Source: a virus (lineage: Duplodnaviria > Caudoviricetes). From it: DNA of 64,000 nt. The notes below the pieces were generated by a model. That model saw nothing but the letters and a program-made list of their open reading frames with translations. It had not been told where the DNA came from and ran no database searches. Positions within the stretch are counted from its first letter, which is position 1. Each line of letters opens with the position of its first letter. The position numbers and the translations under genes are program-made. Positions 2 through 58,100 of the stretch are shown here, piece by piece. The stretch spans positions 59,840 to 123,839 of IMG/VR virus record IMGVR_UViG_3300037067_004608. One strand, 5' to 3'.

Positions 2-1102
2 AGAATAAAGTCACGAGGAAGATATAAGACAGATACAAAGACAGGAACAAGAGTTGCTACAGGATGTAAGACTACAGCTGCAATAAAAGAACTTAGTTCA
101 AGATATAGATGGGCAATAACAGGAACTCCTATTGAGAATAGCATAATTGATATGTTCTCTATTCTTGAGTTCTTAGACCCGATGATATTTGGTTCTATTG
201 CAGCATTCAAAAAGAGATATATGAAACAGACTCCATGGGGTTCCCAAACTGGAACCTCACAGAGTGAAGAACTGAAGCGGAAACTTGCGCCCATAGTTCT
301 AAGACGTGAAAAGGCACTTGTCCTTCCATGGCTTCCACCATGTACAGAAAATGAAGAACCTTGCGAACTTGTTGGAGATCAAAGGCGTCTATATCAGGAA
401 TTTGAAGATGAGACACTAGAAGCTCTAAATGCTATATCAAATAAGCAAGGGAAAGAAAGACAGCAGGCTCAGTTTGAAATAGTAGCAAAGATGGTTTATC
501 TCAGAGAGATTTGTGATTCACCAGAGCTAATAGATCCAAACATAAAAGAATCAGGAAAACTATCTTCACTACTTGCAATACTAGAAGATTTGCCAATAGG
601 CAAAGTATTGATATTCTCTCAATTTGAGAGAATGACAGCAATTATTGAAAGAGAGATTGAAGCAAGATTTGGAATGGCTCTACAGCCATTTAGAATACAT
701 GGTGGAGTAGATTCACACACAAGAAATAACATAAAAGACATATTCAATCTAATTGATAGACCTGTTGCTCTAGTAACTACAGACTGTTCAAAATATGGAG
801 TTAATATGCAGGCAGCAAGGTGGGTATTTAATTATGATCTCCCTTATAATCCTGCTATAATCTCACAGAGAATAGGCCGTGCACACAGAGATGGTATGGA
901 TGAAGTAGAAAGGCTTGGTGATGATAACAATGTAACAGTAATAAACCTAACTGTAGCAAACACAATTGAAGATAGAGTCAAAAAGATAATTAACACAAAA
1001 AGACTAATCTTCAATGATATAATGACTGACAACCAGATACTTCACAAGTTCTCTCTTGATGAACTAAGATACATTCTAACGGGGCGCGAAGTCGCCGCGT
1101 AA
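2..1102 (+). CDS. SNF2/DEAD-like helicase, 5'-truncated by window edge
   Basis: Frame is open from nt 2 and includes motif III (WAITGTPIEN), then LRREK, SGKL, VLIFSQF, GVNMQAA and QRIGRAHR (motif VI). Confidence 0.93.
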   Translation, partial: RIKSRGRYKTDTKTGTRVATGCKTTAAIKELSSRYRWAITGTPIENSIIDMFSILEFLDPMIFGSIAAFKKRYMKQTPWGSQTGTSQSEELKRKLAPIVLRREKALVLPWLPPCTENEEPCELVGDQRRLYQEFEDETLEALNAISNKQGKERQQAQFEIVAKMVYLREICDSPELIDPNIKESGKLSSLLAILEDLPIGKVLIFSQFERMTAIIEREIEARFGMALQPFRIHGGVDSHTRNNIKDIFNLIDRPVALVTTDCSKYGVNMQAARWVFNYDLPYNPAIISQRIGRAHRDGMDEVERLGDDNNVTVINLTVANTIEDRVKKIINTKRLIFNDIMTDNQILHKFSLDELRYILTGREVAA

Positions 1103-1136
1103 GACGGAATCGAGGGTTTGCGACCTACTTTTAAGC

Positions 1137-1178
1137 GTGAATTCACGCGAATGCACCGCCTCTCGGATACTAGACGGG
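1137..1178 (+). repeat. Dispersed element copy 1 (GTGAATTCACGCGAATGCA-N15-TAGACGGG)
   Basis: Exact 19-bp core shared with five other intergenic sites. Confidence 0.9.
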
Positions 1179-1236
1179 TTTTAATACTCGTTTCCTAAGT
1201 AAAGAGGGTGCAATGACATAATAACAGGAGAAGATA

Positions 1237-9564: not shown

Positions 9565-10616
9565 TGGCAAGAATAAAGGTTAAAGATCAGCATATTGATA
9601 TTGATCTTATGCAGTTGATGACTGATTATGGCATCAAAGGCAAGAAGATCGGTAATGAGTATGTTGCTTTTTGCCCTTTCCATGATGATAATTCTCCAAG
9701 TTGGTCTCTAAAGCTCGAAGGAGATAGAGCTGGTCTATGGCATTGTATGTCCTCTAGTTGTGAGTTAAAAGGAAATATAATAACACTCATAACTATGATG
9801 GAAAATTGCGGTTATAAAGAAGCAATTGCATCACTAACTGCTATAGAATCAGAAATAAATGTATACCAAAAAGATTTAGATTCACTAGTTAATAGACTGC
9901 TATCAATAGGAATAGACACTAGGCAGTCTAGCCTCAGATACAAAGTTCCACCAGACTGTAGTAAATCATACGTTCAAACCTTCTTCACAAATCCAAAAGA
10001 AAAAGGAGGTAGAGGATATTCAAAAGAAGAGTTTGAACAATTGATTGTTGATGATGTAGTATATTGTGAATCAGGTTTCTTCAGGAATAAGATCATAGTT
10101 CCAATCTACAATGAATCGGGCGAGCAAATCTCGTTTGTAGCAAGAACTCTTGATCCAAATGTCATGGAGAAATACAGATACCCAAAGGGCTGGATGAAGA
10201 ATCTCTTTGTTTACAGAATGGAAGCTAATCCATCTGAGCCTCCGGTTATATGTGAAGGAATATTTGATGGCAAGCATATACAAGGTATCTGGAATAGAAC
10301 TGCATTAGTAGTCTTTGGCAGTTCTCTTACTACAGCGCAAATAGCGTGGATAGCAAAAAGATACGACAAAGTAACATTTAGCCTTGACGGAGATAAGGCA
10401 GGAAGGAAGGGAACCTATCACGGTATAAAAAGCATGCAACAATTTGGAACTGATATCACTGTTATGGAGCTACCCGATGGCTTCGACCCTCCTGGAGTTT
10501 CAAGGACGGAAATGACTAATCTAGTATTGATGGCAGCAAAGGACTATGGAGAGAAATGGGAGAGAAGTCATATGTTGAGCAGATTCTCGATGACTGGCAT
10601 CCGAGGATCAAAATGA
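9564..10616 (+). CDS. dnaG: DNA primase (CHC2 Zn finger + TOPRIM)
   Basis: CPFHDDNSPS..WHC..C, SFVART, ICEGIFD, DGDKAG. Confidence 0.93.
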   Translation: MARIKVKDQHIDIDLMQLMTDYGIKGKKIGNEYVAFCPFHDDNSPSWSLKLEGDRAGLWHCMSSSCELKGNIITLITMMENCGYKEAIASLTAIESEINVYQKDLDSLVNRLLSIGIDTRQSSLRYKVPPDCSKSYVQTFFTNPKEKGGRGYSKEEFEQLIVDDVVYCESGFFRNKIIVPIYNESGEQISFVARTLDPNVMEKYRYPKGWMKNLFVYRMEANPSEPPVICEGIFDGKHIQGIWNRTALVVFGSSLTTAQIAWIAKRYDKVTFSLDGDKAGRKGTYHGIKSMQQFGTDITVMELPDGFDPPGVSRTEMTNLVLMAAKDYGEKWERSHMLSRFSMTGIRGSK

Positions 10617-11110
10617 TGATTGCCCGCTGCGGCTTTGGCGCAGAGGACAAAGAATTGTTAGAGAATGAGCTACTTGAGAAAGTAGTAACGTGTATCGAAG
10701 AATACGACACATCATACGATGCAAAGTTCGATACATTCACCAATAGATGTTTAATGAATCATATTCAGGTTCATCTAAGAGGTGAGAAAAGAAAGAAGCA
10801 CTCATTTATATCGAACTCAATGTCCTTGGATTACACAATTGATGAGGGAGATACAATCTCAGAACTTATCGCTGATCCAAAGGCAATATCTGCAGATACC
10901 ATTATTTTCAACATAACTTTGAGTGAAATAATGAATCTGCTTCCTGATGTTTGCAAAGAGATAGTAAGCCTTCTTTGCGCAGGTTTGAGTGAGTCAGAAA
11001 TAGCAAGAATTATTGGAGAAGAATCTCGACTAGTAAGAGGATATATCGAGGAATGTATACAGCCTTTAGTGGTAGAACTACTTCTTTGTGAGGAAAGAAA
11101 TGACGGATAA
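10556..11110 (+). CDS. Phage sigma-70 family sigma factor
   Basis: YD...DAKFDTF region 2, SLD, region-4 HTH GLSESEIARIIG. Confidence 0.82.
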   Translation: MGEKSYVEQILDDWHPRIKMMIARCGFGAEDKELLENELLEKVVTCIEEYDTSYDAKFDTFTNRCLMNHIQVHLRGEKRKKHSFISNSMSLDYTIDEGDTISELIADPKAISADTIIFNITLSEIMNLLPDVCKEIVSLLCAGLSESEIARIIGEESRLVRGYIEECIQPLVVELLLCEERNDG

Positions 11111-13987: not shown

Positions 13988-14336
13988 GGGGCCGAAATGG
14001 TTTCGACAGAGGGCAGACGAAGCATACTGCGAGCCGAGATGACTGTAGGACTCGTGAATCAGTCAAACAATAAAAGCGAATACAGACACACTCTCTTCCA
14101 TCGCTGGCAGAAATGCCGACATGGAAGTAATGGCTGCCTAGCGTAGCCTGTCTCTCATTCTGACTCCGATATGATGAGAGGCTCAAATTATCGGACTGGC
14201 AAGCTGAACCACAATATGACGATAGTGGGAGGGGTCACCTCCAGCTCTAATCGTGGAAGAAAAGATGGTGACTACGCTCGTAGACGTTTGTTAGAAAACC
14301 TTTTGGACAGGGGTTCGATTCCCCTCGGCTCCACCA
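13988..14336 (+). ncRNA. ssrA: tmRNA
   Basis: 5' GGGGCCGAAATGGTTTCGAC; 3' GGACAGGGGTTCGATTCCCCTCGGCTCCACCA with G3-U pair; tag frame 14076-14141 ANTDTLSSIAGRNADMEVMAA*. Confidence 0.96.
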
Positions 14337-15658: not shown

Positions 15659-15909
15659 TGACAAAAGTAAAACTTACTTACTTCAAAGAAAGTGGTAAGT
15701 ATTATAGTGATGGAGAATATGAAACTGACCTCCAGGAATGGCATGATGTTATAAAGGACATCAAGATAAAGCAAGAAGAAGGAAATCTACCAGGACTTGT
15801 TGAAGGTGGCGGTCAGGAGTTTATGATTCTGGTAAATACAGAGGGAATCGGGACTGCAGATGTTCCTCATATTATACACCCTATTCCTCCCGAAAACCGG
15901 AGATACTAA
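15655..15909 (+). CDS. Hypothetical phage protein
   Basis: YFKESGKYY; AGGAG RBS. Confidence 0.65.
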   Translation: MMTKVKLTYFKESGKYYSDGEYETDLQEWHDVIKDIKIKQEEGNLPGLVEGGGQEFMILVNTEGIGTADVPHIIHPIPPENRRY

Positions 15910-15911
15910 AC

Positions 15912-15953
15912 CCCGTCTAACGATTGGAAGGCCCTGCAATCGCGTGAATTCAC
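15912..15953 (-). repeat. Dispersed element copy 2
   Basis: Reverse strand reads GTGAATTCACGCGATTGCA-N15-TAGACGGG. Confidence 0.9.
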
Positions 15954-16003
15954 TCGCCTTTTCCGCCCCGAAACGACCGAAACGACCGAAGGAGGAAAGG
16001 AAT

Positions 16004-20930: not shown

Positions 20931-21236
20931 ATGGGATTGATAATCTTCTGCCTTCTCGCTTCTGCATCAATGGGTCTTATGGCCAAGCAGAGAGACACAA
21001 TCCTTTGTGGAGACCTTCGTGATGCATTCCACAAACAAGGTGAATTAGTAGCAGATATGAGATCAATACTAATTCAGCTTCAAGCTGCGAAAAACGAAAA
21101 ATCAGAACTTGTCAGGAAACTCAAAGTTATAGCAGCATTCGATGAACTAGAAAAGTTTTCAAAGAAACATCCAGAAGAGGTAATCCTTTGGCCAGAACAG
21201 ATGTCTACGACAACAAAAGAGTTGACGCAAGAGTAA
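20931..21236 (+). CDS. Membrane-anchored coiled-coil protein
   Basis: AGGAG RBS, hydrophobic N-terminus. Confidence 0.65.
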   Translation: MGLIIFCLLASASMGLMAKQRDTILCGDLRDAFHKQGELVADMRSILIQLQAAKNEKSELVRKLKVIAAFDELEKFSKKHPEEVILWPEQMSTTTKELTQE

Positions 21237-24200
21237 CAAAAGAACAGTTAGCTGGAACTGAACGACTAAGTGTCAAACTTGGAGATGACCATTTAATTGG
21301 CGCTGGTAACTTTCTGGCAGAATTACCAGAAGATCAGAAAATAGCATATGATGACATGTTTGAATTTATGCTTTTTCATATAGAAAAAGGATGGTTCAGA
21401 AAACTAGAAGGGAGAGTCCCAGAGGATAGGCGAGAAGATTATATGAAAAGGCTCAAATTTGAGAGCTTTGAAATATATCGCCTTGGTTTCGTTAAATATG
21501 TTCTAATAGTCTGGGACATATGCCAATATGCCAGGAAAATGGAAATACCGTTCAATGCTAGAGGATCAGCTAACGCATCTCTAGCATTATATTGTCTTGA
21601 TATCATTAGCTTGGACCCTATGGTATCTGGTCCAGGTGGTGAGTCTCTTATATTCACGAGGTTTATATCTCCAGATAGGATTGACTATCCTGATATTGAT
21701 CTTGACTTTGCAGATATCAGGAGGCCAGAAATCAAGGAATACTTGAATATCAAGTATGGAGAAGAATGTGTAGCAGAGATAGGAACTTTCATAACAATGA
21801 AGGGTAAGCAATGTCTACAAGATATTGCTAGAGTAAGGAAGATTTCAAAAAGAGAAACATCTCAGGTTTCAGCACTTATTGTACAAAGATCAGGTGGAGA
21901 TGCAAGAGCGGACTTTACAATTATGGATGCTTTTACAGCATTCCCTGCCTGTATATCATACCGAGAACGATACCCAGAAGCAATAGAGGATGCTGTTAAA
22001 TTAGAAGGACAGATACGAGGGCAGGGAGTTCACGCTTCAGGAGTTGTTGTAAGCAATAGACCATTAAGAGAAGATATACCACTTGGTGTAAAGAAAGATG
22101 GAACAAAGGTAGCAGGATTCGAGATGAAAGACACAGACTCTATGGGTCTGTTAAAACTCGATATTCTTGGCCTGAGAACACTAAGGGTTATAGCAGAAAC
22201 AGTTAAGTTAGTCAAGAATAGACACGACTTCACAATTTGTACATGCCAAGGGTGCAAAAAGGTAAATGAGATAGCAGAAAAGAAGAAACTTAGGATACAG
22301 AGTTTGCTTTCTCATATGTCTACTACAGATCCAATGCGAGCATATTGGGAAGAAGAACTCAAAAATGTCAAGCCTAATCTCGATGTCTGGTTTGAGGATA
22401 TAGACTACGATGATCAGGAAGTATTCAAACTCTTCCAGGAAGGATATACTCTTGGGATATTCCAATTTGAATCTAAAGGTTTCCAAAAGCTCTCAAGACG
22501 AGCTAAACCGAGGTCGGTCATTGACCTCGCAGACCTTAATGCGCTCCATCGCCCTGGCCCAATTCGGTCAGGAATTATGCATGAGTGGTTACTTAGACGA
22601 TCAGGGAAAAGCGATAATGTCCCAGTACATCCCTTCTACGATAAAGCCACCTTGGGAACCCAAGGTCTTATGCTCTACCAAGAACAAATAATGGGAATTG
22701 TCCACGATGTAGGTGGATTTGTCTGGTCAAAGACAGATATTATGCGCAAAGCTATATCAAAGTCTGTTGGCGAAGAGTTCATGAGAAGATTCAAAGTAGA
22801 CTTTGTAGCAGGTGCTGTAGAGAGAGGTATGGCAGAAGCAGACGCTGGTAAAGTATTTGACCAGATAATATCATTTGGATCATACTCATTCAACATGGCC
22901 CACGCTTCAGCTTATGCATACTTAGCATATCGCTGTGCTTTCCTAAAAACGTATTATACAACAGAGTTTCTACTTTGCGAAATCAATTCCCTTGGCTCCA
23001 CTGATGACAAGATTCACAATCTAATACAGGAAGCAAGGCGTGTTGGAGTTCCTGTACATCTTCCTGATATAAATAGAAGCAATGTTACATACTCTCTTGG
23101 GCAAAAAAGCATGAGAGCAGGATTCAGCTCTATAAAAGGAGTTGGACCAAAAGCAGCACAAAATCTTATAGACAATCAGCCATACAAAGACTGGAATGAC
23201 TTCAGAGAAAGAATAAACAGAAGACAAGTAAATAGCGGAACAATTTCAGCTTTAGTATCTTCTGGAGCATTCAAGAGTATGTATCCAAATACAAGAGTCC
23301 TTCTTGAGAACCTCCCTGTTCTACTTGGAGGAAAGCAAGAGATGATAGATTCAATACTTGAGATAGCTCAGCACACTGATCTTGAAGCATATCCACCTTA
23401 CACTGAAAGGGAAGAAACAGAACTTCAAATGGGAGTTCTTACTCTTCCAACAGAAGTAAATCCTCTTGACTTCTATAAAGATGTCTACGAAGCTATTGAT
23501 GACAGCCTTACTATAACTCCAATATCAGAATTGGATACAGAAACAAAAGGCTCTGTAATTCTGAAGGCAGTTATGAACAGTGTTAGTTATGGCTATCGGC
23601 AAGCAGGCAAAAAGGGAGATAATGAGGATGATGTTGATGAAGAATATAAAGGTGGCGCCTATGTAAATCTTGATGATGGAACAGACTTCATAATGGGAGT
23701 ATTCAATCCTGCTGTTTATGAGAGATACAAAGTATTTCTTGAAACAGCAGAAGGGTCGGCAGTTCTTGTAAAAGCTCGGAAAGGAAAGAATTCAGACAAA
23801 ATAGACATAGATGATGTAACTGTCCTTTCAGAGTTTCAAGAGAATTTGAAAGCAGGAAAGCACTCGAAGTTTGAACAATACTTATTGAATCCTCCTCTAA
23901 AGAAATACAAAGACTTAATTGAGTCTATGAAACTTTCTTCTATTGGAGATGTTGTAGACTCTCTTCCAAATGCTAAGAAAAGTGAACAAATGCGATTTGT
24001 CGGAGTCATCTCAAATCTTAGAGAACATAGAACTAAACATGGCGGACTAATGGCATTTGTTGCACTTGATGACAATCAAGATAGTGTTGAGCTTCTCGTT
24101 TGGCCAGAGGGATATGCAAAGTTCAAAAAGCACATAGTTCTAGGAGAACCCGTAGCAATAAAAGCTCACAAACTCGATCCAATGCCAGGAGGAAAAGACT

Positions 24201-24292
24201 ACAAGCTGCAACTATCTGCAGACCAAGAAGATAAGGTGTATTCTTTATCTGCTATACAAGAATACAATGAGAGAAAGGCAAGTGGACAATAA
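21188..24292 (+). CDS. dnaE: DNA polymerase III alpha, catalytic part (palm, fingers, HhH, OB)
   Basis: RGSANASL, PDIDLDF, HASGVV, KLDILGL, GIFQFES, YQEQIM, SFNMAHA; TTG start with GAGGT RBS. Confidence 0.93.
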   Translation: MARTDVYDNKRVDARVTKEQLAGTERLSVKLGDDHLIGAGNFLAELPEDQKIAYDDMFEFMLFHIEKGWFRKLEGRVPEDRREDYMKRLKFESFEIYRLGFVKYVLIVWDICQYARKMEIPFNARGSANASLALYCLDIISLDPMVSGPGGESLIFTRFISPDRIDYPDIDLDFADIRRPEIKEYLNIKYGEECVAEIGTFITMKGKQCLQDIARVRKISKRETSQVSALIVQRSGGDARADFTIMDAFTAFPACISYRERYPEAIEDAVKLEGQIRGQGVHASGVVVSNRPLREDIPLGVKKDGTKVAGFEMKDTDSMGLLKLDILGLRTLRVIAETVKLVKNRHDFTICTCQGCKKVNEIAEKKKLRIQSLLSHMSTTDPMRAYWEEELKNVKPNLDVWFEDIDYDDQEVFKLFQEGYTLGIFQFESKGFQKLSRRAKPRSVIDLADLNALHRPGPIRSGIMHEWLLRRSGKSDNVPVHPFYDKATLGTQGLMLYQEQIMGIVHDVGGFVWSKTDIMRKAISKSVGEEFMRRFKVDFVAGAVERGMAEADAGKVFDQIISFGSYSFNMAHASAYAYLAYRCAFLKTYYTTEFLLCEINSLGSTDDKIHNLIQEARRVGVPVHLPDINRSNVTYSLGQKSMRAGFSSIKGVGPKAAQNLIDNQPYKDWNDFRERINRRQVNSGTISALVSSGAFKSMYPNTRVLLENLPVLLGGKQEMIDSILEIAQHTDLEAYPPYTEREETELQMGVLTLPTEVNPLDFYKDVYEAIDDSLTITPISELDTETKGSVILKAVMNSVSYGYRQAGKKGDNEDDVDEEYKGGAYVNLDDGTDFIMGVFNPAVYERYKVFLETAEGSAVLVKARKGKNSDKIDIDDVTVLSEFQENLKAGKHSKFEQYLLNPPLKKYKDLIESMKLSSIGDVVDSLPNAKKSEQMRFVGVISNLREHRTKHGGLMAFVALDDNQDSVELLVWPEGYAKFKKHIVLGEPVAIKAHKLDPMPGGKDYKLQLSADQEDKVYSLSAIQEYNERKASGQ

Positions 24293-26727: not shown

Positions 26728-26761
26728 TAACGCAGTAAATATATTGAAAGGTGGAAAACAG

Positions 26762-28567
26762 ATGAAGTTTGCAAACAGACTCGTTCTTGTGTTAGCACTA
26801 ATTTTGTGCTGCACAGTGGCATTCTCTGCCACTTACTATGTGAAATGGGATTCTCCCATTAATGGTCCTGGTAATGATCTTGACCATGCATACCATACTA
26901 TTGCTGCTGCAATAACTGCTTCAAGCAACGGGGATACAATATATGTATATGGTCCTCACTCATATGCAGAATCCCTAGACTTGAATAAGCAACTGACGGT
27001 TACAGGAGTAAATGGGCCGACTATAGATGCTTCTTCCACTGGTTACGGAATTATAATCAGTGCGGCATCTAACTTACAATACTTCACTGTTCTTGGAGGA
27101 CATTTTAATGCAATAAGCATAAAGAATGCTGCAACAGGAACAATGGTAAAAGGCTGTACAGTAAATGTATACCAGTATGGTAAAGGTATCTATATTGGAT
27201 ATGACAGTGCATCAGCATCAGCATCTGCTAGAATTGACAATAACATAATCTCCGGTGGTTCCTGGAAATCAGAGGGAATATTTGGCTGTATAATTTCTTG
27301 GGGAGGTAACTCGATTATAACAAGTAACCTCATCAAGAATGGTGCTCTTGGAATATTCTTATATGGAAGTGGATCACCGTCTATTTACAATAACACAATT
27401 GTTGGATGCAACAATGTAGCAACTGGTTCAAATCCTCCTGCAACAAAAGGTGGAGGAATATACATAACTCACTATAGTTGGCCACTTATTGAAAATAACA
27501 TAATTGCCAACAATAACGCTGATTATGGTGGAGCCTATTACATAGACCTAACAGGTGGTGGCTCTGTTCAGGATATGGGGTGGAACACATTCTATGGAAA
27601 TACTTCAAATATTTCTGGATATGTTTACTACCCAACACAAGCCAATTTTGGAACAATTGGTGTAGATGGAAATAACGAAGATAATCCAGTATTTGTTGGA
27701 AGTTCTGATTACAGACTACAATATAACTCAACATGTATAGGAACTGGAAACAATAACTATGCTGGCGGAGAATGCTGCTGGAAAGATATAACAGGACTTC
27801 CTCGTGTATTGCCAGCAGCGGGAACTGTTGACAGAGGATGTTATGAAGGTGCATCTGTACTAACAAATACAAGAACTGTGGGCGACTGGGTAGAGCTAAG
27901 ATCAAAACCTGTAACTGGTAACTTTACAGATATGTTCTATGTTGAAGAGCCAAGTAGAGTTAATGGAGTAAAGATACTATCTACAAGTTCTGCAGTTGCT
28001 GGAGATTTAGCAACAATAGATGGACAGTATGTTACAAATGAAAATGAGTTATCTATTCAGCCAACAAGTGTTTCTATAACTTCTGGAAGCTCTTCAAATA
28101 TACCAGGGACTCTTGGAATGCCAAACCGATCTCTTGGAGGAATAAACATAGGACTCCTTGTTAGAGTTTGGGGAAAGATAACTTCAGCAGCAGCTGGCGT
28201 ATACCTAATAGATGATGGTTCTGGTATAAACAGCACTGTTCTCTGGTATGGAACTCCCTACAACGTTAATGACTACATAGCTGTAACAGGGGTAAGTTGT
28301 TATGGTTGTGTAAGAGCAACTTCTGTTGACTATATAACAACAATAGAAGGTCAGCAGATGATGTCTATGGGAATGTCCTCAAGTTCTCTATCTATTGATA
28401 AGAGTTCATCTAAATATGAATCCATTCTCAGATGGCAGCAGTTCTTACAGGACAACTTAGATGAGCTTGCAAAGCACGAGAAATTAACCGCTTCACAGAT
28501 AAGCTGGAAGAATCTTATTGAGATACTTATGAAGCAGGCCCAAGAGCAACTATCCAGCTATAAGTAA
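26762..28567 (+). CDS. Secreted right-handed beta-helix protein with choice-of-anchor-Q-like and C-terminal OB-like repeats
   Basis: Signal peptide, TIAAAI, NN-ladders, DYRLQYNS.CIGTG..DITGLPR..VDRGCYE, FYVEEPSR..GV, GLLVRVWGKIT..IDDGSG. Confidence 0.8.
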   Translation: MKFANRLVLVLALILCCTVAFSATYYVKWDSPINGPGNDLDHAYHTIAAAITASSNGDTIYVYGPHSYAESLDLNKQLTVTGVNGPTIDASSTGYGIIISAASNLQYFTVLGGHFNAISIKNAATGTMVKGCTVNVYQYGKGIYIGYDSASASASARIDNNIISGGSWKSEGIFGCIISWGGNSIITSNLIKNGALGIFLYGSGSPSIYNNTIVGCNNVATGSNPPATKGGGIYITHYSWPLIENNIIANNNADYGGAYYIDLTGGGSVQDMGWNTFYGNTSNISGYVYYPTQANFGTIGVDGNNEDNPVFVGSSDYRLQYNSTCIGTGNNNYAGGECCWKDITGLPRVLPAAGTVDRGCYEGASVLTNTRTVGDWVELRSKPVTGNFTDMFYVEEPSRVNGVKILSTSSAVAGDLATIDGQYVTNENELSIQPTSVSITSGSSSNIPGTLGMPNRSLGGINIGLLVRVWGKITSAAAGVYLIDDGSGINSTVLWYGTPYNVNDYIAVTGVSCYGCVRATSVDYITTIEGQQMMSMGMSSSSLSIDKSSSKYESILRWQQFLQDNLDELAKHEKLTASQISWKNLIEILMKQAQEQLSSYK

Positions 28568-28610
28568 AGCGTATATACGATAGCGGAGGAGTTCCGATAG
28601 CGTTTTAAGC

Positions 28611-28652
28611 GTGAATTCACGCGAATGCAATCGGTTCACGCGGTTAGACGGG
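28611..28652 (+). repeat. Dispersed element copy 3
   Basis: GTGAATTCACGCGAATGCA-N15-TAGACGGG; also shares upstream TTTTAAGC with copy 1. Confidence 0.9.
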
Positions 28653-28708
28653 TAAAAGAGTCGATACCGCTTTATTCCGAATATATACAGGGAGGAGGTG
28701 ATAACAGA

Positions 28709-28879
28709 ATGTCTGGTGATGAAGAGAAGAAGGTAGAGACCACTGAGGAGGAGCCTGAGACTGAAGAGACTGAAGAGGTTGAGGAAGCAGAGGAAACCGA
28801 AGAAGTCGAAGAGTCTGAGGAAACCGAGGAGGGGTCGGAAACTGAAGAGGATGATCATGAAGAGGAACCTGAAGAGTAG
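28709..28879 (+). CDS. Extremely acidic 56-aa protein
   Basis: GGAGGAGGTG RBS then ATG; about 34 of 56 residues are D/E in xEE repeats. Confidence 0.7.
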   Translation: MSGDEEKKVETTEEEPETEETEEVEEAEETEEVEESEETEEGSETEEDDHEEEPEE

Positions 28880-28902
28880 TTGACGACCACCTGTATGAAG
28901 TT

Positions 28903-35888: not shown

Positions 35889-38116
35889 TGCAATTAATGA
35901 AACTCAGCATAGAAGGTCTATTCTCTTATCAAGAGAAGAGTTCATTATGGCTAGATAAGCCAGGGCTTATCCTAGTAGATGGAGAAGTAGATAATGATAA
36001 TGATAGCTCCAATGGAGCCGGAAAGACATCTATTATAGATGCAATATGCCTATGCTTATTCAAATGTACAACAAGAGGGACTGAGAATGACGATGTTGTC
36101 AATGATGAAATGGATTCTGGCTGGGCAGCATTGACATTCATAGCTGGTCAGGAATCTTATCAAGCTCAATATGAGAGAGATAAGAAACTAAGAAAGACAA
36201 TATGGAAAATATATCACAATCAAGAAGGAAGGCTTATTGATATAAGTGGTAGAGGCCAGGCTGAAACGCGAGAGATAATTCAATCAATAATAGGTGTTGA
36301 TTATAATACATTCTCTAACAGCGTTCTATTCGGCCAGGGCCTTGTTAGCCTATTCCTTGCTAAAGGAGAAGGTGACGCATCAAGGAAAAGATTGTTCACA
36401 CAGATACTTGATCTCGATGTTCTTGATGGAGCCTTACAAGAAACAAGAGACTCGATTAAGGAAATTGAGAAAAGGCAAACTGCACTAGAGCAGGAAAGAA
36501 AGACACTAGAAGACAAAATAGGTCTTGAGCCTGCTATAAAAATGGAGCATGGAGTTATTCAGGCTCAGATTGGAAGCATCAATAAACAGATAGCTTCTAT
36601 AAATGAAAATATAAAAGCTCTTGAGAAAGTAGCAGCTCTATTAGAAAAACAGACTTCTATAGCAGATAAAGTAGTAGCAGCAGAAGAAGCTGTAAAAGAT
36701 ATAGAAGAAAGAGAATCAGCAGAAGAAACTTCAAGGAGTCAAAGGCAGGCTAACTGTGATCAGGAAATAAAAACTGCAGAATGCCAGCTAGAAGAAATTG
36801 AGAAGGGAAGTGCTGATCTTGAAGGAGTGGAAGAACTTCTTAACAAGGTTGAAGAAGGTGAGAAGGCAAAAATCACCTTTGAAGCCAAATCCAGGGAACT
36901 TAACCATACGGTGGCAGTTGCGAAATCGGAGATCAAACAGAAAAGAAAAACAATAGCTGATATTAAAGAAATGGAGTCTCAGCTTGATAATTGTGACGGT
37001 AAAGACAATTGCCCTTATTGTGGTCAGAGTCTTGATGATGATAGCAGAAAAAGAGTCCATCAGAAAGTAGAAATGGAAGTTGCAGAGATAGAAGGGCAAA
37101 TCGATGATCTTAACTTTGAAGTTGAGACAGCAGAAAAGAGTCTTGAAGACTTACATAAAGAGTATGCCTACTTGTCTGATCTTCTACAAAATGGCAAAGC
37201 CAGAGTCGATCTAACAAATAGACAGCAGAAGATAAAGACAGCTATAGAAAGTAGAGGAGTATGGGAAGAGCAGATAAAGAGACTAAAGAAATCAAAAGAA
37301 TCAATAGATGCTGAATGTAAAGCAAATATTGATTCTTTAGAAACGAAGAAAAAATCTGCACAAGAAGAACTAGACAAGTCAAATAAAGAACTTGAGTCTA
37401 TTAACATAGAACTAAAGGGTGCATACATTCCTGAGAGTTCTAAGGAGCAACTTGAATCAGATCTCAGATCTTGTACAAAAGAGAGAGATAGGCAGAATAT
37501 TGCTCTTGGAATGAAGACACAAGTCCTTGGTGAAATAGAGAATGCTAAAATGGCAAGGGTAGAAGTAGTCAAATCTCTTGGGGAGATAGATCATTCTCTA
37601 AAACATGAAAGATTCATAGAAGAGATGTTCGGAGCAGATGGAATCAAGTCTCTAATAATAATGTCTGTAACTCCTCGATTAACAGATTTGGCTAATCGCT
37701 ATCTAGCAGAACTTTCTGATAGGCCAATATCTGTAGACTTTGTTACAAGTTATGAAGGCAAGACAAAGACAATTGAGGACTTCAAGATTCTTGTTACAAG
37801 AGGATTGAAGACATCTGATATTAAATCTTTCTCTGGCGGAGAAAGAAAGACAATAGAGTTCGCTGTTCACTTTGCAATAAGTGATATAGTAAGAGAAAAG
37901 TCTGGCTGTAATATAAGCACACTATTCCTAGACGAGCCATTCGATTCTCTTGATGAGAGTAAGATAAATAGATGTGTTAGACTCTTGCGAAGTCTAAATG
38001 AACAATTCCCTACGATCTTTGCTATGTGCCATATAGCCTATGCAAAGGAACAATTTGATAGGGTTATAACAGTAAAAAATGTAGGTGGGTGTTCCACAAT
38101 AATTAACGGAGAGTGA
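35888..38116 (+). CDS. sbcC: SbcC/Rad50 ATPase
   Basis: NGAGKT, Q-loop, CPYCGQ Zn hook, FSGGE, FLDEPF. Confidence 0.93.
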   Translation: MQLMKLSIEGLFSYQEKSSLWLDKPGLILVDGEVDNDNDSSNGAGKTSIIDAICLCLFKCTTRGTENDDVVNDEMDSGWAALTFIAGQESYQAQYERDKKLRKTIWKIYHNQEGRLIDISGRGQAETREIIQSIIGVDYNTFSNSVLFGQGLVSLFLAKGEGDASRKRLFTQILDLDVLDGALQETRDSIKEIEKRQTALEQERKTLEDKIGLEPAIKMEHGVIQAQIGSINKQIASINENIKALEKVAALLEKQTSIADKVVAAEEAVKDIEERESAEETSRSQRQANCDQEIKTAECQLEEIEKGSADLEGVEELLNKVEEGEKAKITFEAKSRELNHTVAVAKSEIKQKRKTIADIKEMESQLDNCDGKDNCPYCGQSLDDDSRKRVHQKVEMEVAEIEGQIDDLNFEVETAEKSLEDLHKEYAYLSDLLQNGKARVDLTNRQQKIKTAIESRGVWEEQIKRLKKSKESIDAECKANIDSLETKKKSAQEELDKSNKELESINIELKGAYIPESSKEQLESDLRSCTKERDRQNIALGMKTQVLGEIENAKMARVEVVKSLGEIDHSLKHERFIEEMFGADGIKSLIIMSVTPRLTDLANRYLAELSDRPISVDFVTSYEGKTKTIEDFKILVTRGLKTSDIKSFSGGERKTIEFAVHFAISDIVREKSGCNISTLFLDEPFDSLDESKINRCVRLLRSLNEQFPTIFAMCHIAYAKEQFDRVITVKNVGGCSTIINGE

Positions 38117-39208: not shown

Positions 39209-39530
39209 CTTCACATGTCCATTCTATATGACTTGTGATGAGATATGTGACGTAGTATCAGATGATTTCCTATCATCATCTAAATTACTTGATGAGTATC
39301 AAGTAGCACTTATGAATGGAGAGAATCCTGATAGGCAATCATTTATAGATCGCTGTCCTGAAAGTGAGAGGCAAGACTTTGATGAGCTTCTTAAAGTTTC
39401 TGACTCTCTACATGTCTATTATAGCACACAAGTGAGCCAAGAAACTGTAGACAAAGCAATTGCAAGAATAAAAGAGATCAGAGACGCTAATAAGGTTAAT
39501 TCAGTAGAATCGGTAGGAAAACGAGAGTGA
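39189..39530 (+). CDS. Hypothetical protein
   Basis: GAGGA RBS; its TGA stop lies inside element copy 4. Confidence 0.6.
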   Translation: MSKTTNNFTCPFYMTCDEICDVVSDDFLSSSKLLDEYQVALMNGENPDRQSFIDRCPESERQDFDELLKVSDSLHVYYSTQVSQETVDKAIARIKEIRDANKVNSVESVGKRE

Positions 39531-39566
39531 ATTCACGCGATTGCAAGGGGTTTGCAATAAGACGAA
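39527..39566 (+). repeat. Dispersed element copy 4
   Basis: GTGAATTCACGCGATTGCA then degenerate AAGACGAA. Confidence 0.88.
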
Positions 39567-39680
39567 TAGTTTTACTCGTAAACGAGGGTAAAATCGTCTT
39601 TCACGCTTGCAAGCAGATGGAACGCGAATTAGCGGTTTATAGGCGTAAAAGAATAGTAGAAACTCGTGAAAGGAGACGAT

Positions 39681-42426: not shown

Positions 42427-42999
42427 ATGCTAGAACTTAGAAGTTCACTTAGAGACTACAACAAGGCTTTGACACATGCCATAGACTCGATAGACTGCGT
42501 TCTACTTGAGGATGTAATAGAACTACTTCGAGAGAATATTGTCTGTGAGAGCATATTTATCATAGGCAATGGTGGAAATGCTTCTACAGCATCTCACATT
42601 GCCTGTGATTTACAGAAGGGACTGTGGCAAAATATTGAAACATCTTGGTCGAATGTTTCTTCACTATCAGACAATATTGCCTTATTCACAGCATGGGCAA
42701 ATGACTATGATTTTGAGAGTGTATATAGCAGACAACTAGAACAAATAGCAACTGAAGGCGACATACTTATTGCTCTAAGTGCTAGTGGAAACTCTCACAA
42801 TATAGTCCACGCCGTTGGCCAAGCCATTCTTATGAATATTGATACAATAGGAATATCTGGATTCAATAGCACTCCTTTATCTAGGAAAGTGAAATATCCA
42901 ATAATCATAGAATCAGAAGATATGCAGATAATTGAAGATGCTACTTTGATTATTGGACATTTTATATTCAAGGAGTTGTCAAGAAGAATTGCACAATGA
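42427..42999 (+). CDS. gmhA: Phosphoheptose isomerase (SIS)
   Basis: IGNGGNASTASHIACDL, TAWAND, GDILIALSASGNS.N, QIIED. Confidence 0.88.
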   Translation: MLELRSSLRDYNKALTHAIDSIDCVLLEDVIELLRENIVCESIFIIGNGGNASTASHIACDLQKGLWQNIETSWSNVSSLSDNIALFTAWANDYDFESVYSRQLEQIATEGDILIALSASGNSHNIVHAVGQAILMNIDTIGISGFNSTPLSRKVKYPIIIESEDMQIIEDATLIIGHFIFKELSRRIAQ

Positions 43000-43056
43000 T
43001 GAATAGAAAATGAAAATAGCGTCTATTCCTCTTAAACCTAGAAAACGTATAAATAG

Positions 43057-43097
43057 GCGGCCTAACCGATAGAAGGGGTGCAATCGCGTGAATTCAC
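43057..43097 (-). repeat. Dispersed element copy 5 (contains perfect 16-bp palindrome CGCGTGAATTCACGCG)
   Basis: Reverse strand reads GTGAATTCACGCGATTGCA-N14-TAGGCCGC. Confidence 0.9.
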
Positions 43098-43152
43098 GCG
43101 TTAAAAGTGTATCCAAACGAGCTTAGAGGTAAGCGGGAGAGATCGGGAAACG

Positions 43153-43188
43153 AGAAAACCCTGGAGGGCATAATCTCCAGGGTTTTCT
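43153..43188. terminator. Bidirectional terminator between convergent arms
   Basis: AGAAAACCCTGGAG/CTCCAGGGTTTTCT with A and T tracts. Confidence 0.75.
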
Positions 43189-53228: not shown

Positions 53229-54244
53229 GTTATTGCACTTATCTCCCCTTCTATATATAGAACAGGTTCACTTATTGTATAGACATCTCCACCTGCCCAA
53301 GTTATCTGGTTAATTTGCGACATAACTAGTAAAGTGTCAAATGTATCATATTCATTGTTAACTATCCATCCTATCATAGATAAATATAAATCTGTAGTAA
53401 GAACTTCATCAATTATATACTCAAGAATAGTTATCCATGATATATTAGAAATAGCATGTGATGGATAAAGAACTTCATTACTTGTTATAGACCTTGGCCA
53501 GTTATTGCTACGAACATAGTAAAGTCCATATCTTCCCTTAATTCTCTTTGATATACACAATACTATAGCCGCAGATTCCCATTCTTCAGTTCCACCAACT
53601 ACAAATGCATCATCAATATATAGCTCACCAGTAAGTCCTGTTATTACTATTGTGTTTTCTGTATCCCATACAGTAGTATAAGGAGGAGCACTTCTTGCTC
53701 TCCAGCATAGAACATCATCAGACCTCTTGTAAAATATAAGCAAATCCTGGTCTCTATCTGATAATACTACTGGACACCTTCCATTTGTTACCTTCTGTAT
53801 GAATGGAGTTACGACAATACCAATTAGTCTTTCATCATAAACCCAAACTTCAGAAGAAAGCTCAGTTGGCCAATATTCATATCCTATACAAATATTACCC
53901 TGAGCATCTATTGTTATAAAAGGGTTCCTTATTTTACCAGTGTGACTCTCTGGAACAAGAGAAACAGCCCAAGTAGATTCCCAATCAGAATCATCAGCAA
54001 GAGCAATCCCTGCTTTTAGTATACCATTTTCATCAACAAAAGTCCCATATATTCTTCCAGTAACAGGTGATGCTGCCATACGAGGTTGAGTTCTTATTAC
54101 AGCATCTGTTTTTTCAATGTATCCCTCATTTGTCTGACCAAGACTTTTATTGAAATGATATATCCTCTCATCATCAATAGGATTAGTGAACTTCACATTA
54201 TACCTCTTTGAGTATGATGACAGGAGTAAATCTAGGCTCAGCAA
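53141..54244 (-). CDS. Beta-propeller-like tail protein with C-terminal ~23-aa Trp repeats (start uncertain)
   Basis: Repeats ISNISW / LSMIGW / INQITW / ISAITW. Confidence 0.6.
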   Translation of the reverse strand: MLSLDLLLSSYSKRYNVKFTNPIDDERIYHFNKSLGQTNEGYIEKTDAVIRTQPRMAASPVTGRIYGTFVDENGILKAGIALADDSDWESTWAVSLVPESHTGKIRNPFITIDAQGNICIGYEYWPTELSSEVWVYDERLIGIVVTPFIQKVTNGRCPVVLSDRDQDLLIFYKRSDDVLCWRARSAPPYTTVWDTENTIVITGLTGELYIDDAFVVGGTEEWESAAIVLCISKRIKGRYGLYYVRSNNWPRSITSNEVLYPSHAISNISWITILEYIIDEVLTTDLYLSMIGWIVNNEYDTFDTLLVMSQINQITWAGGDVYTISEPVLYIEGEISAITWTSNNNVNSPDEGLVCTCQITVLSLTSV

Positions 54245-54851
54245 ATCTTTGGCCAGTTACAGGTCTTGGATCACAATTAAGAATTGCTACTTTTGGCCTC
54301 CAAACAAAATGCATAGCAACCTTATCGTTGTTATCTAACTCTGTGGTAAATGATATTTTCCCATCTTCATAATCTATTGTAAATCCTGTAGTGACAAGAG
54401 CATCATTTACCCACACTTTTGTCAGTGATGCATCATCATTAGACAGATTTCTATAAGGAGTGAAATAATCATAATAAGATGCATCTCCCTTTGGCCAGCA
54501 TTCAACAGCTCCAGAAGATGATGCCTTTACTGAATCGTATTTTGCATCAAATTGCCAAAGACGCAAGTATATAGTCTGTCCAAAATATCTTGTGAAGGTA
54601 TTAAGAATATCAACACCTTCTTTTTTCATCTTAGAATAAGCCAGCTGCATCTTATGATAGCGAATAAGTCTTGGATCACCATATTTCTTCCGGTATACAA
54701 CTTTATCTTCAAAGTTGTTAGTCTTGTATTCTGTATATTCTGGCTGTCCTTCAAGCAGTGTGAACTCAACAGGATTGTTTGATAAGTATTTATCAACTTC
54801 TGTAGCAGAATAATATGGATTAGATGAGAATATCCACGATGCTCTTGCCAT
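54198..54851 (-). CDS. Distal tail protein candidate (DUF2460-like)
   Basis: VWVND....FTIDYEDGKISF; follows tape measure. Confidence 0.6.
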   Translation of the reverse strand: MARASWIFSSNPYYSATEVDKYLSNNPVEFTLLEGQPEYTEYKTNNFEDKVVYRKKYGDPRLIRYHKMQLAYSKMKKEGVDILNTFTRYFGQTIYLRLWQFDAKYDSVKASSSGAVECWPKGDASYYDYFTPYRNLSNDDASLTKVWVNDALVTTGFTIDYEDGKISFTTELDNNDKVAMHFVWRPKVAILNCDPRPVTGQRFAEPRFTPVIILKEV

Positions 54852-54858
54852 ATCTTAC

Positions 54859-54987
54859 CTACCTTGTTCCTGAGTTTCTAACTGCTACTTTATATGTTGA
54901 GAGTTCACCTGGTGGAAGTTTCTTTTTCATCTTGCCACCGATAATAACTCTTGACTTCTGATTTACTATTACTACCTTCTTTTTCAC
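54859..54987 (-). CDS. Small basic protein, 42 aa (not in ORF track)
   Basis: AAGGAAGG RBS, GTG start, MKKKVVIVNQKSRVIIGGKMKKKLPPGELSTYKVAVRNSGTR. Confidence 0.45.
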   Translation of the reverse strand: MKKKVVIVNQKSRVIIGGKMKKKLPPGELSTYKVAVRNSGTR

Positions 54988-55086
54988 TATATAACCTTCC
55001 TTTTAGAAGAAGTAAACTATAATAGACGTATTCCACGTATCTAGGATAAGTGAATCTAATAGGATAGTATCTAATCCTAATAAGAA

Positions 55087-55126
55087 CCCGTCTAGGAATC
55101 TACGCTCTGCATTCGCGTGAATTCAC
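55087..55126 (-). repeat. Dispersed element copy 6
   Basis: Reverse strand reads GTGAATTCACGCGAATGCA-N13-TAGACGGG, abutting the tape-measure stop. Confidence 0.9.
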
Positions 55127-58100
55127 TTACCTAGAGCTTGGAGAAGCACTTATCTGACTTGCCAATACCTTTGCCGGCCCTTCAGATACTCCAGCTACAA
55201 AATCTGCACCAGCAGATCTTGGATCAGCAGAAACAATTTCTATTCTAGCAAAGTGTACATTAACATTAGAGTTAATATTAGCATTATTTGCTCTTGTCCC
55301 AAGGCTAAGTGGAAGTCCTTCTCTGCCACCTTCTGCTGCTCTACGAATATATTTCTTAGTTGACCACTGTATATCTTCAGGTCCTTGCATTTGCTGCAAT
55401 TCAACTGGCTGAGGAGCGGCAGCTTTCTTTCTTTTGCCTTTACCAAGAAATCCACCGAGAATAGTAGAACCAACACCAATAAGTCCACCAATTGGACCAC
55501 CAGTAGCAAAACCTGTTATTGCATTCATCGCAATATTGCCACCAGTTGCACCCTGAGAGTAGCCAGACATAAACCCGCCAGCGCCAGTCATTATATTACC
55601 AAGACCACTTGCCTTGGCTCCCATTGCACCTTTTAGACCACCTGGACGAGATACAAGCTGTGATAGAGCACCCATCCAAGGGTCTCCAGTTACAACAGAA
55701 CCTGCTGCTCCTAGACCATATAGAATAGACTCTGTTCCTGTCATTTTATATGGTGCAAGTGCTCCACCAACACCAGTCCCAATTCCCGCTCCACCTGTAG
55801 AAACTGCTCCTAGTGGAACTGCAGCATTACCAACACCAGCTGTGGTCCCTGGCATTCTATCTTTGTGTATAGCAGCGCCAACACCTATTGCAACTCCAGC
55901 TGCAATAACAGCAGTAGATGCAGACTTACTAGCTGTATCTGGCATTGTAAGACCAGAAGCTAGAGTTGGTATTTGTCCTTCTACACCAGGAAGAGTTGAA
56001 AAGCCAGACACTACCTGCCCTAGATTATTAACAGCATTATTGAATACATCGACACCAGATCTAAATGTATCCATTGCTATCTGTTCTAGGTTCTGTATAT
56101 CTTTCCTATAATTTATCATTGAAAGATCATGGTTCATCTGATCTTGCAATGCTTTCTGTTGAGGTGTCTGGAAAGCAGGTCCGAGAGCTGGCATTATGAC
56201 TTCATCTGTAAGCCAATTTGCCATAGCATCTTTATAAGCATCTGCTATCTTTATACCAAAGTTCTCAAGAGCATTTCCTTCTCCAAGATCACCAGATATA
56301 GCACTCTTAAAGGCATCTGACCACCCAGACTTAACAGTTTCCTGGAAAGTTATCATAGGCTCCATTATGTCTTTAAGGTTCTGCTGTGCCGCTTCTACAA
56401 CCTCATCACCAAGGAATAGTCCTTTTTCAATAAACTCATTCCTTATCTCTGTGACCTTTTTTCTAGGAAGATCAAGAAGATCCATGTAGAAGTTTATCTT
56501 CTGCTTATCTTTCTCTATAGCAGTAGATATATAACCAAGAAGAATTGAAGCCCTTTCTTCAGGACTTTTTCCAGCTTTTGCAAGAAGATCGTCATAAATC
56601 TTAGCAAAAGTCATAAGACTCTGTGTTGCCCTTGGAGTTATATCTGTAACACCAGGAAGTGTATCACTTGGCTTCTGTAAGAATGCAGCTCTATTAGAAG
56701 CTCCATATAGCTTTTCAGCTAGATTCATTCCAGCTTCTACTTGCTGTAAAGCAGCATCTCTTTGTTCTTGAAGAGATTTTTCAACTATAGACTTTTCTTG
56801 AGCAGCAAAGAGTTTTCGCTTATTTATTCTCTGAGTCTCTGTCTGCATCTCGTCGTCTGCAGTTCTCTCATAAGCCTCTCTTTGCGCTTTAAGTTCAGCA
56901 AGCTGTATATCTGTTTCTTGCTGTATAAGTGAAATCCTATGACTAAAAGACGCATCAGTTATAGATGACAAGTCTCTATATAACTCAAAGTTTGCAACTC
57001 TAAGCTCATTATATCCTGCCATCTCTGCATCGAACGTCTTGTTAGCACTGGCTCTGATTTTCTTATTCTTCTCATCTTCAGCATTGACAAGTTCTTGATT
57101 TCTAGTCTTGCTGATTGCATCAAGAGACTTCTGTACATCATCTCCTACAATCTCTTTTTTTGTCATCTTCTGCTGACGATCAAGAAGAGCCTGCTGATAC
57201 TTCTCTTCTATTGAATCTCTCTTATCAAGATATTCACTCTTGATAATATCAAGTTCTGTTGCAGCAGATGTAGCTGTTATAGTCAGATGCTCTCTCTGAG
57301 CTTGCCTATAACTCTGATTTAGAGAGTTGTTATACTTAATTGTATCAAGAGCATCTTGTGCTTTCTGTAAGCTAACCTTCCTCTCTTCTTCACGAGTTAT
57401 TCTAGCCTTTTCAGCAACTGCTCTAGCATCAATCTCTTTCTCTTGCTGAGCCTCAAGAACCTTTGCTCGTTTTCTTTGTGCAGCAGTATCACCAGTTTGC
57501 TTAAGCTCAAGAGCTAACTTCTCTCTAGCATCTGCCTTCTGATTTGCTGCTCTCTCATCTGCTTCTCTTCGATCAGCTTCAGCTGCTTTCCTTATAGACT
57601 CAACAGCTGTCGCCTGCTCTGGATTTCTAAGTCCGGCAACTTCAGCAGCAGATCTTTCCTGTCTTATCTGTTTCCTAAGAGTATTGATATAACTATCAAG
57701 AGTTCTCTTATTCTTGCTTCCTGCTTCTAAGTCCTCACCAGGAAGAATATCTGCTCCGGGTGCAGCAAATGCTCCTTGCATAATCTTCTGATACGCAGCT
57801 TCTGTCTTAACTACATAATATGGTTGCTTGAAACCGCCTGTAAATTGAGTAAGATTTCTACCTGCTCCTCTATATCCAACGGTTCCTTTTTTGCCAGGAG
57901 CAGGAGTCTCTATTATCTTTCCAGATGCTCCTACAGTTCCTATATGCCCAGGAGTTATAACCCTACTTCCAGGTGTAGCTTCACCACCTAGAGTTATATC
58001 ACCAACTGAAGCGGCTAGTGCAGCAGCTGCTCTCTTGAATAGAACTCCACCAGCAGCATCAACACCAGGTAGAGCTGTGCCAGAAACAGCTTGGTCAAGA

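Follow-up and report, generated by a model that had tools for sequence, protein, structure and literature searches.

A CA/TG-free zone around a repeated 19-nt element in a tailed-phage genome and its possible origin in transcription control

Introduction

Repeated control sites have been described in several replicons. Phages of the T7 class use promoters of about 23 bp, others have promoters read by phage sigma factors (e.g. SPO1 gp28 or gp33-34), and the IncP plasmid RK2 carries 12 palindromic OB sites of KorB near promoters. Motif avoidance is known from bacteria, where signal-like sequence is purged if it would interfere; the published cases are weak, genome-wide and concern specific hexamers. 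Here, we analyse a 19-nucleotide (nt) core element, GTGAATTCACGCGAWTGCA, that recurs at gene boundaries of a tailed phage (Duplodnaviria; Caudoviricetes), and the islands around it from which the CA:TG dinucleotide step is nearly absent. The window, i.e. the whole stretch of DNA analysed, comprises the last 64 kb of the 123,839-bp virus record IMGVR_UViG_3300037067_004608, which stems from landfill and groundwater metagenomes. Coordinates refer to the window unless prefixed G000, which denotes the whole 123,839-bp record.

In common with repeated phage promoters, the core is a near-invariant motif present in about a dozen copies, intergenic and co-oriented with downstream genes, and, as in phages with sigma-read promoters, a candidate specificity factor is encoded by the phage itself. 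Unlike for T7-class promoters, no start has been mapped and a search for a T7-like RNA polymerase, run without a positive control, gave no match. The core also differs from repeated phage promoters in having a palindrome, which suggests a dimeric binder, and we know of no description of dinucleotide-step exclusion in the flanks of such promoters. The KorB network is similar in that a palindromic site is dispersed over the control regions of a replicon, with some copies apart from an obvious promoter. Conversely, the phage core is extended in a polar fashion and followed by fixed boxes, no ParB/KorB-like protein turned up here (no search was aimed at one), and to our knowledge no compositional zone is associated with OB sites. 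Vertebrate CpG islands are likewise short regions at gene starts with undepleted CpG in a CpG-poor genome. However, they extend over at least 200 bp with raised G+C, whereas the phage islands cover about 120 bp at 45–51% G+C, CA/TG itself is depleted 3- to 13-fold, and no evidence for CpG methylation was found. As in bacterial motif avoidance, the idea would be that signal-like sequence is purged where it interferes, but here a whole dinucleotide step is near-absent from a defined zone of 45–100 bp. The first-step-transfer region of phage T5, examined for comparison, has 8–16 CA/TG per 100 nt and thus shows no purge. We found no published description of such a zone: the motif string matched cloning primers only, and a keyword search on CpG/TpG bias in phage intergenic DNA gave nothing relevant.

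Composition of the islands

The record is linear according to IMG/VR and rated 100% complete by CheckV. Its G+C content is 40%, with observed/expected ratios (O/E) of 0.44 for CpG, 1.15 for CA and 1.13 for TG. The core occurs in 13 genomic copies, including one variant ending in TTGTA, and all 13 lie at gene boundaries. Six copies fall inside the window, where the following features were delineated (positions with a plus sign are counted past the core):

1072–1209, plus strand: island 1; core 1137–1155; CA/TG-free runs 1072–1119 and 1154–1209
15877–16003, minus strand: island 2; core 15935–15953, opposite to the flanking plus-strand genes; CA/TG-free runs 15877–15925 and 15951–16003
28555–28612, plus strand: island 3, upstream CA/TG-free run with 6 CpG; contains CGTATATACG and two copies of CGATAGCG
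28611–28629, plus strand: island 3, 19-nt core GTGAATTCACGCGAATGCA with 4 CA/TG steps
28630–28688, plus strand: island 3, downstream exclusion zone; past +12, the first CA/TG is at +59
28690–28879, plus strand: gene served by island 3; ribosome-binding site (RBS) GGGAGGAGG (28690–28698) and an acidic open reading frame (ORF) of 56 amino acids (aa) with ATG at 28709
39527–39667, plus strand: island 4, long-leader class; core 39527–39545; CA/TG-free runs 39555–39602 and 39618–39667
43011–43162, minus strand: island 5; core 43079–43097 with a full 16-bp palindrome; CA/TG-free runs 43011–43079 and 43114–43162
54985–55126, minus strand: island 6; core 55108–55126, directly past the stop of the 2044-aa tape-measure gene

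The upstream run of island 3 spans the last codons and the TAA stop (28565–28567) of ORF 26744–28567 as well as a 41-nt spacer. A 14-bp palindrome, GCGTGAATTCACGC, covers 28609–28622, and the zone beyond the core holds a half-site repeat, TTCACGCG (28635–28642), followed by TAGACGGG (28645–28652), GGGTAA and TCGATACCG. The last 10 codons of the ORF upstream of island 1 are devoid of CA/TG and make use of the rare codons ACG, CGC and GCG. Island 4 carries a TTTCACGC box near +57. Island 5 is located at the convergent junction of plus- and minus-strand gene blocks, which coincides with the peak of the cumulative GC skew. In island 6, the downstream zone (54985–55108) holds two CA/TG, and the upstream flank is coding and normal in composition. 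At sites with an evident downstream gene, RBS and start codon follow about 55–135 nt past the core.

Within ±50 nt of the 13 cores we counted 81 CpG and 53 CA+TG, compared to 22.4 ± 6.4 and 175 ± 10.6 for random genomic placements and to 64.8 ± 6.2 and 157 ± 9.7 for mononucleotide shuffles of the same flanks. The flank O/E values are 1.20–1.27 for CpG, 0.35–0.59 for CA and 0.11–0.31 for TG. The islands are thus "CpG-rich" solely by comparison with the depleted genome; judged by local base content, CpG O/E is about 1.2. Their G+C content over 120 nt is 45–51%, and of the 30 longest runs without CA/TG in the genome, about 20 are no more than about 75 nt away from a core. The 130 nt at 28561–28690 hold 15 CpG and 6 CA/TG, the latter located in the core and the TTCAC(G) box that follows it; among 130-nt windows of the genome, at least 14 CpG are found in 0.09% and at most 7 CA/TG in 0.7%. 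The hand counts of the original prediction, which had described islands avoiding CA/TG on the basis of the letters alone, proved accurate: positions 1–600 and 1081–1200 contain 7 and 15 CpG, respectively, CA/TG is absent from 28561–28610 and 15954–16000, and two are present in 54988–55107.

The bias is not a property of intergenic DNA at large. With the motif masked, the median CA/TG density of core-bearing intergenic regions is 4.5 per 100 nt vs. 11.2 in the 24 regions without a core (Mann–Whitney p = 3.5e-5), and the CpG medians are 5.2 and 2.4 (p = 0.004). Thirteen ordinary spacers retain the bulk signature (O/E of 0.42 for CpG, 1.00 for CA and 1.09 for TG), which upholds the proposed tie between the islands and the repeat system; an equal bias in all intergenic DNA, named as a refuting case for the original prediction, is not seen. 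In coding DNA, CpG O/E amounts to 0.44, 0.32 and 0.53 by codon phase; being low at all three, the bias is not codon-driven.

An exclusion zone of fixed length in related phages

No close relative of the 123.8-kb phage was found among deposited phage genomes. The core was found at 20 sites in IMG/VR contigs about 70% identical in coding DNA, and metagenome contigs contributed 29 further distinct sites and one chance match. The pooled set comprises 62 distinct sites, orthologous ones among them not being independent. From +13 to +50 (2,356 nt), these sites hold 22 CA+TG vs. 284 expected from their own base content, a 13-fold exclusion, and 181 CpG vs. 118 expected. Upstream of the core (−50 to −1), CA+TG and CpG amount to 4.0 and 7.6 per 100 nt, and from +71 to +100 to 10.5 (bulk about 13.7) and 3.9 per 100 nt. 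Taken alone, the 13 paralogous copies in this genome have 4 CA/TG between +13 and +50 vs. 59 expected. Conservation over the same interval is low, at 0.40 bit per position, and two CpG positions alone occur in at least half of the 62 sites. The segment from +13 to +50 is therefore a compositional rule that is upheld while the sequence drifts.

The first CA/TG past +12 is found at a median of +56 (33 sites) and not before +41 at 32 of the 33; the same holds for 28 of the 30 new metagenome sites. Upstream, the nearest CA/TG lies at a median distance of 17 nt, and runs of at least 41 nt are seen at about one third of the sites. Polarity and a fixed length characterise the zone: between +13 and about +56 the exclusion is near-absolute, and upstream of the core it varies. 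This asymmetry amends the original description. In the relatives, CA (1.65 per 100 nt) and TG (1.75 per 100 nt) are depleted equally on both strands, which implies a property of double-stranded DNA. The residual CA/TG steps sit within conserved boxes, GCAA, TTGC, TTGG, CCAA, TCAA and TCAC being the commonest contexts. Where the upstream flank is coding, codon habit is overridden at some sites: no codon with CA/TG is used at 1072–1102, for example, and ACG, CGC and GCG, which make up 4–5% of their codon families, are used in the tails of some upstream genes. Codon habit prevails elsewhere, for instance in the tape-measure tail.

Alignment of the 62 sites revealed weaker boxes past the core, namely GGGCYTTYCAAT or TTTGCA at +1 to +12, TAGACGGG at about +14 to +21, a TA-rich stretch and CGT at +32. 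In several copies, the TAGACGGG box is one arm of an inverted repeat, ACGGGT-N3-12-ACCCGT. Three exact cores in bacterial metagenome-assembled genome (MAG) contigs have unrelated flanks of normal composition; they were judged to be chance matches and rejected as a means of host identification. An orthologous locus without the core was sought and not found, a relative having a core with one mismatch there.

As a separate observation, long-leader copies contain a further pair of core-like half-sites in everted arrangement (ATTCAC-N12-14-GTGGAA) at about +52 to +80. Examples are seen at 39580–39630 of the window, at L020:3053–3156, and in L005, L014, L016 and others.

CpG richness as a by-product

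The abundance of CpG was compared with what the lack of CA/TG would impose. A per-flank shuffle with fixed base content and CA+TG capped at the observed number predicted 82.7 ± 5.6 CpG, compared to 71 observed, and the other dinucleotides fell within about 2.5 standard deviations of expectation. In alignments of orthologous islands, 47% of the CpGs are not conserved. TG/CA accounts for 6 of 206 replacements (3%) in these alignments, in contrast to 1,001 of 2,358 CpG replacements (42%) in coding alignments, whereas AG or CT takes the place of CpG equally often in the two sets. The primary anomaly is the exclusion of CA/TG, and CpG richness is its by-product: if no A may follow C and no T may precede G, then CG, TA, CC and TT rise, and the usual replacement of CpG by TpG or CpA cannot be fixed. 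Taken together, the constrained shuffle and the replacement data show that one rule, "no CA:TG step", explains both halves of the observation; selection, or else a highly specific bias, must be upholding this rule. Shared words that contain CpG were considered as a cause and rejected, as the upstream flanks are no richer in shared words than dinucleotide shuffles (z 0.4–1.0); downstream, TAGACGGG alone stands out in this test.

These results also bear on the idea that the islands are shielded from CpG-to-TpG decay. The low share of TG/CA among island replacements agrees with it, but shielding alone cannot produce CA/TG O/E values of 0.1–0.6. Causality is reversed: with CA/TG excluded, CpG is at or slightly below the constrained expectation. 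A vertebrate-style CpG island, or neutral non-coding composition that escapes methylation decay or codon bias, could be invoked on the grounds that the bulk genome combines a CpG O/E of 0.44 with CA and TG in excess (1.13–1.15), and that CpG in coding DNA is most often replaced by TG/CA. Absent decay cannot give rise to CA/TG at O/E 0.11–0.59, however, ordinary spacers keep the bulk signature, CpG is low irrespective of codon phase, and no C5 methyltransferase was found. This explanation is already contradicted by the data and retains hardly any credibility.

A possible footprint of transcription control

The CA/TG-free zone, an observed constraint, is tentatively attributed, as regards its purpose, to the footprint of a transcription-control complex. 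In this model, which we favour without regarding it as probable, each island would be a composite control region of about 100–120 bp that heads a gene or gene group. The proposed layout, read from the left, would comprise a variable upstream flank, the palindrome GCGTGAATTCACGC with a one-sided extension GAWTGCA, a −35-like box (GGGCYTTYCAAT or TTTGCA), TAGACGGG, a TA-rich stretch (e.g. TAGAAT or TCTAAT), CGT at +32, and finally RBS and start codon. Purifying selection would bar the CA:TG step from both strands of this region, save for the conserved boxes GTGAA/TTCAC, TGCA and TTGCA/TTCAA. A complex assembled on the core would read words that contain CA:TG, so that the residual CA/TG boxes would be its recognition sites. 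It might consist of host RNA polymerase with a phage sigma factor, of a dimeric regulator bound to the palindrome, or of both, and a 184-aa protein of the sigma-70 family (see below) is a candidate reader of the element. The distance from the start of the core to +56 is about 75 bp, which is the size of an RNA polymerase–promoter footprint. If these 75 bp are held blank under the complex, no competing half-site would be present; blankness would also remove −35-type TTG, extended −10 TG, and ATG, GTG and TTG on either strand.

The attribution to transcription control draws on the 13-fold exclusion at low conservation, its fixed end, the equality of the strands, the confinement of residual steps to boxes and the unaffected ordinary spacers, as well as on the rarity of TG/CA in CpG turnover, the constrained-shuffle result and the codon habit overridden in some gene tails. 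The normal flanks of the chance MAG cores, the presence of a phage sigma factor and core orientation point in the same direction; the latter follows local gene orientation at 11 of the 13 sites (binomial p of about 0.011 by our own calculation).

A number of observations weigh against this explanation. No transcription start has been mapped, and no RNA run is listed among the public runs that hold the sequence. A simple scan for sigma-70 promoters and terminators (28300–28900), together with inspection, gave no −35/−10 pair of canonical spacing at the island; −35-like (TTTCAA/TTGCAA) and −10-like (TAGAAT/TCTAAT, CGT) boxes are present at non-canonical spacing. Two cores, those at 15935 and 43079 on the minus strand, have no convincing gene downstream in their own orientation, the first sitting within a plus-strand block and the second at the convergent junction. 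The gene calls themselves stem from a heuristic of this analysis, and we are aware of no described precedent for decoy avoidance on such a scale. Moreover, CA/TG-poor composition is also found in 6 of the 24 spacers without the motif, all six of them short, and in a core-less tract of 470 nt outside the window, so the rule is centred on the element and not exclusive to the core. This ORF-free tract (G000 42,560–43,030; L021:2560–3030) holds 1 TG, about 10 CA (mostly CCAG/TCAG) and about 25 CpG, a strand asymmetry that a purely double-stranded reading does not predict. It is situated exactly at the divergent strand switch and the minimum of the cumulative GC skew (42,538), and is devoid of a core, of iterons and of any significant RNA fold (z −0.37). 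The tract may be an origin or an early control region under a strand-asymmetric version of the rule.

Regulatory DNA is usually described by conserved words. Here, a zone of 45–100 bp has nearly no fixed sequence and obeys a strict step rule, which holds at more than 60 sites in diverged phages and overrides codon habit in some of the gene tails it enters. If the footprint explanation is true, the rule would offer a means of delimiting transcription-complex footprints from sequence alone, and would represent selection against decoy signals in an extreme form. If the cause lies in DNA chemistry, be it modification, a nuclease or a topoisomerase, it would point to an unknown activity acting on CA/TG. 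In either case, an apparent viral "CpG island" can be the side effect of another constraint.

Alternative explanations

Both strands are affected alike, and what is excluded is a dinucleotide step irrespective of sequence words, as would be expected if bases were modified in CA/TG context and control regions avoided this context so that proteins meet unmodified DNA, or, in a variant, if proteins read modified steps in the core alone. Among its nucleotide- and sugar-metabolism genes, the phage encodes a ThyX-like enzyme, a class I methyltransferase, a protein with a weak GT4-like match, GmhA and HddA, which count in favour of such a scheme. Still, searches for PF00145, PF01555, PF02086, PF01702 and PF00303, which cover C5, N6/N4 and Dam-type methyltransferases, TGT/DpdA and ThyA-type hydroxymethylase, found none of these DNA-base-modifying families in the record rated 100% complete, and the sole NCBIfam match of the class I methyltransferase is a weak one to an oligosaccharide methyltransferase. 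The link to modification genes that had been put forward is therefore not borne out. Nor do "unmodified windows for protein binding" fit the distribution of steps, as the core, the most conserved and presumed main binding site, is richest in CA/TG (4 in 19 bp) and would itself be modified. No modification specific to CA/TG context is known to have been described, and we consider this explanation unlikely. The heptose-pathway and glycosyltransferase genes lead to a further guess, slightly less likely again, of a novel and perhaps sugar-based CA/TG-context modification. Control regions would then be written in a "modification-free alphabet" with modified steps confined to recognition boxes, by which the regulator or polymerase might tell phage control sites from other DNA. 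Strand symmetry and word independence would equally suit avoidance of an enzyme site or a mechanical demand: the control DNA would have to be stiff or free of a step that a nuclease or topoisomerase favours. The classical gyrase cleavage consensus, for one, is centred on T-G. However, no candidate enzyme was identified, and stiffness, the structural alternative offered at the outset, is weakened by the rise of the flexible CG and TA steps in place of CA/TG, owing to which the pyrimidine–purine total falls just from about 23 to about 19.5 per 100 nt (about 15%; own arithmetic on dinucleotide counts). We regard a mechanical or enzymatic origin as distinctly improbable.

Biased repair would act differently, in that identical cores recombine, whether among copies or with co-infecting genomes, and T:G mismatches in the heteroduplex flanks are repaired to C:G, converting TG/CA into CG. 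Some downstream modules are indeed closer to the module of another locus in this genome than to their positional counterpart (L004, L015 and L018 are 85–91% identical to the 11625 module over 61–77 nt), and island G+C is somewhat higher than in the genome (45–51% of 120 nt vs. 40%). Such likeness is equally well explained by a shared functional consensus, however, and conversion tracts would be expected to give neither a fixed polar boundary near +56 nor a near-total exclusion. CpG is moreover replaced by AG, CT, GG and CC at normal rates, which speaks against a general drive to CG, and is slightly under the constrained expectation; gene conversion is accordingly given little credence. A translation-free zone is about as doubtful. 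Here, TG would be avoided in leaders or read-through because all three start codons, ATG, GTG and TTG, end in TG, and CA would be avoided on account of the antisense strand or the partner strand of a stem. At short-leader sites the zone does end at or just before RBS and start codon, and the core-less 470-nt tract is nearly without TG but retains CA. By contrast, ordinary spacers also precede genes and have a TG O/E of 1.09, long leaders regain CA/TG at about +56, far ahead of the start codon, and CA is depleted as much as TG. The flanks show no significant fold (z −1.95 to +1.07) and no covarying consensus. For the same reason a structured leader or non-coding RNA was rejected, the consensus fold yielding stems of the invariant core alone, and an Rfam search gave no match except the transfer-messenger RNA (tmRNA). 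Chi-like sites (AGCGG and others) were also considered and showed no pattern.

Gene content and further observations

Genes identified alongside the islands include a primase, the ThyX-like enzyme and a RecA-like gene recognised by DNA similarity to phage recA genes, together with the following (strand as far as assigned):

10556–11110, plus strand: sigma-70-family factor, 184 aa; sigma-factor PHROGs at E of about 4e-8, TIGR02937 below cut-off; all matches below curated cut-offs
13988–14336, plus strand: tmRNA gene; Rfam RF00023, 141.8 bits; predicted tag peptide ANTDTLSSIAGRNADMEVMAA
14678–15658, plus strand: HddA-like heptose-7-phosphate kinase
21188–24292: DnaE-type polymerase
42427–42999, plus strand: GmhA-like sedoheptulose-7-phosphate isomerase
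55127–61261, minus strand: tape-measure protein, 2044 aa

The HddA-like and GmhA-like genes represent a partial GDP-heptose pathway in a phage. The best, albeit weak, matches of the sigma-70-family protein are factors of the ECF, SigH and SigK types, which hints at a Firmicutes-like transcription system.

The motif (T)CGTATA(G/A) is found at about a dozen intergenic positions, 20–140 nt upstream of gene starts, and at some of these a TTG-type −35 lies 16–17 nt before TATAGA or TATAAT. Judged by its sequence, it may represent a second promoter class. As a general −10 element behind all islands, CGTATA was rejected: despite its enrichment between genes, the DNA around it is not devoid of CA/TG.

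The variant core ending in TTGTA (G000 37,103–37,190; L020:17103–17190) is found near a degenerate inverted copy and is oriented against the local genes. Its flanks do contain CA/TG, and it may be a decaying copy.

Finally, the start of the record (L019:1–2600) and the region at about 53,900–55,640 of the window (G000 113,750–115,475) are each about 80% identical to one and the same relative contig. Each carries one core with its leader, and the flanks of the two cores are clearly alike. This likeness between the record start and the 3′ end of the tape-measure gene reflects either a diverged duplication of a tail-module junction or an effect of assembly or permutation.

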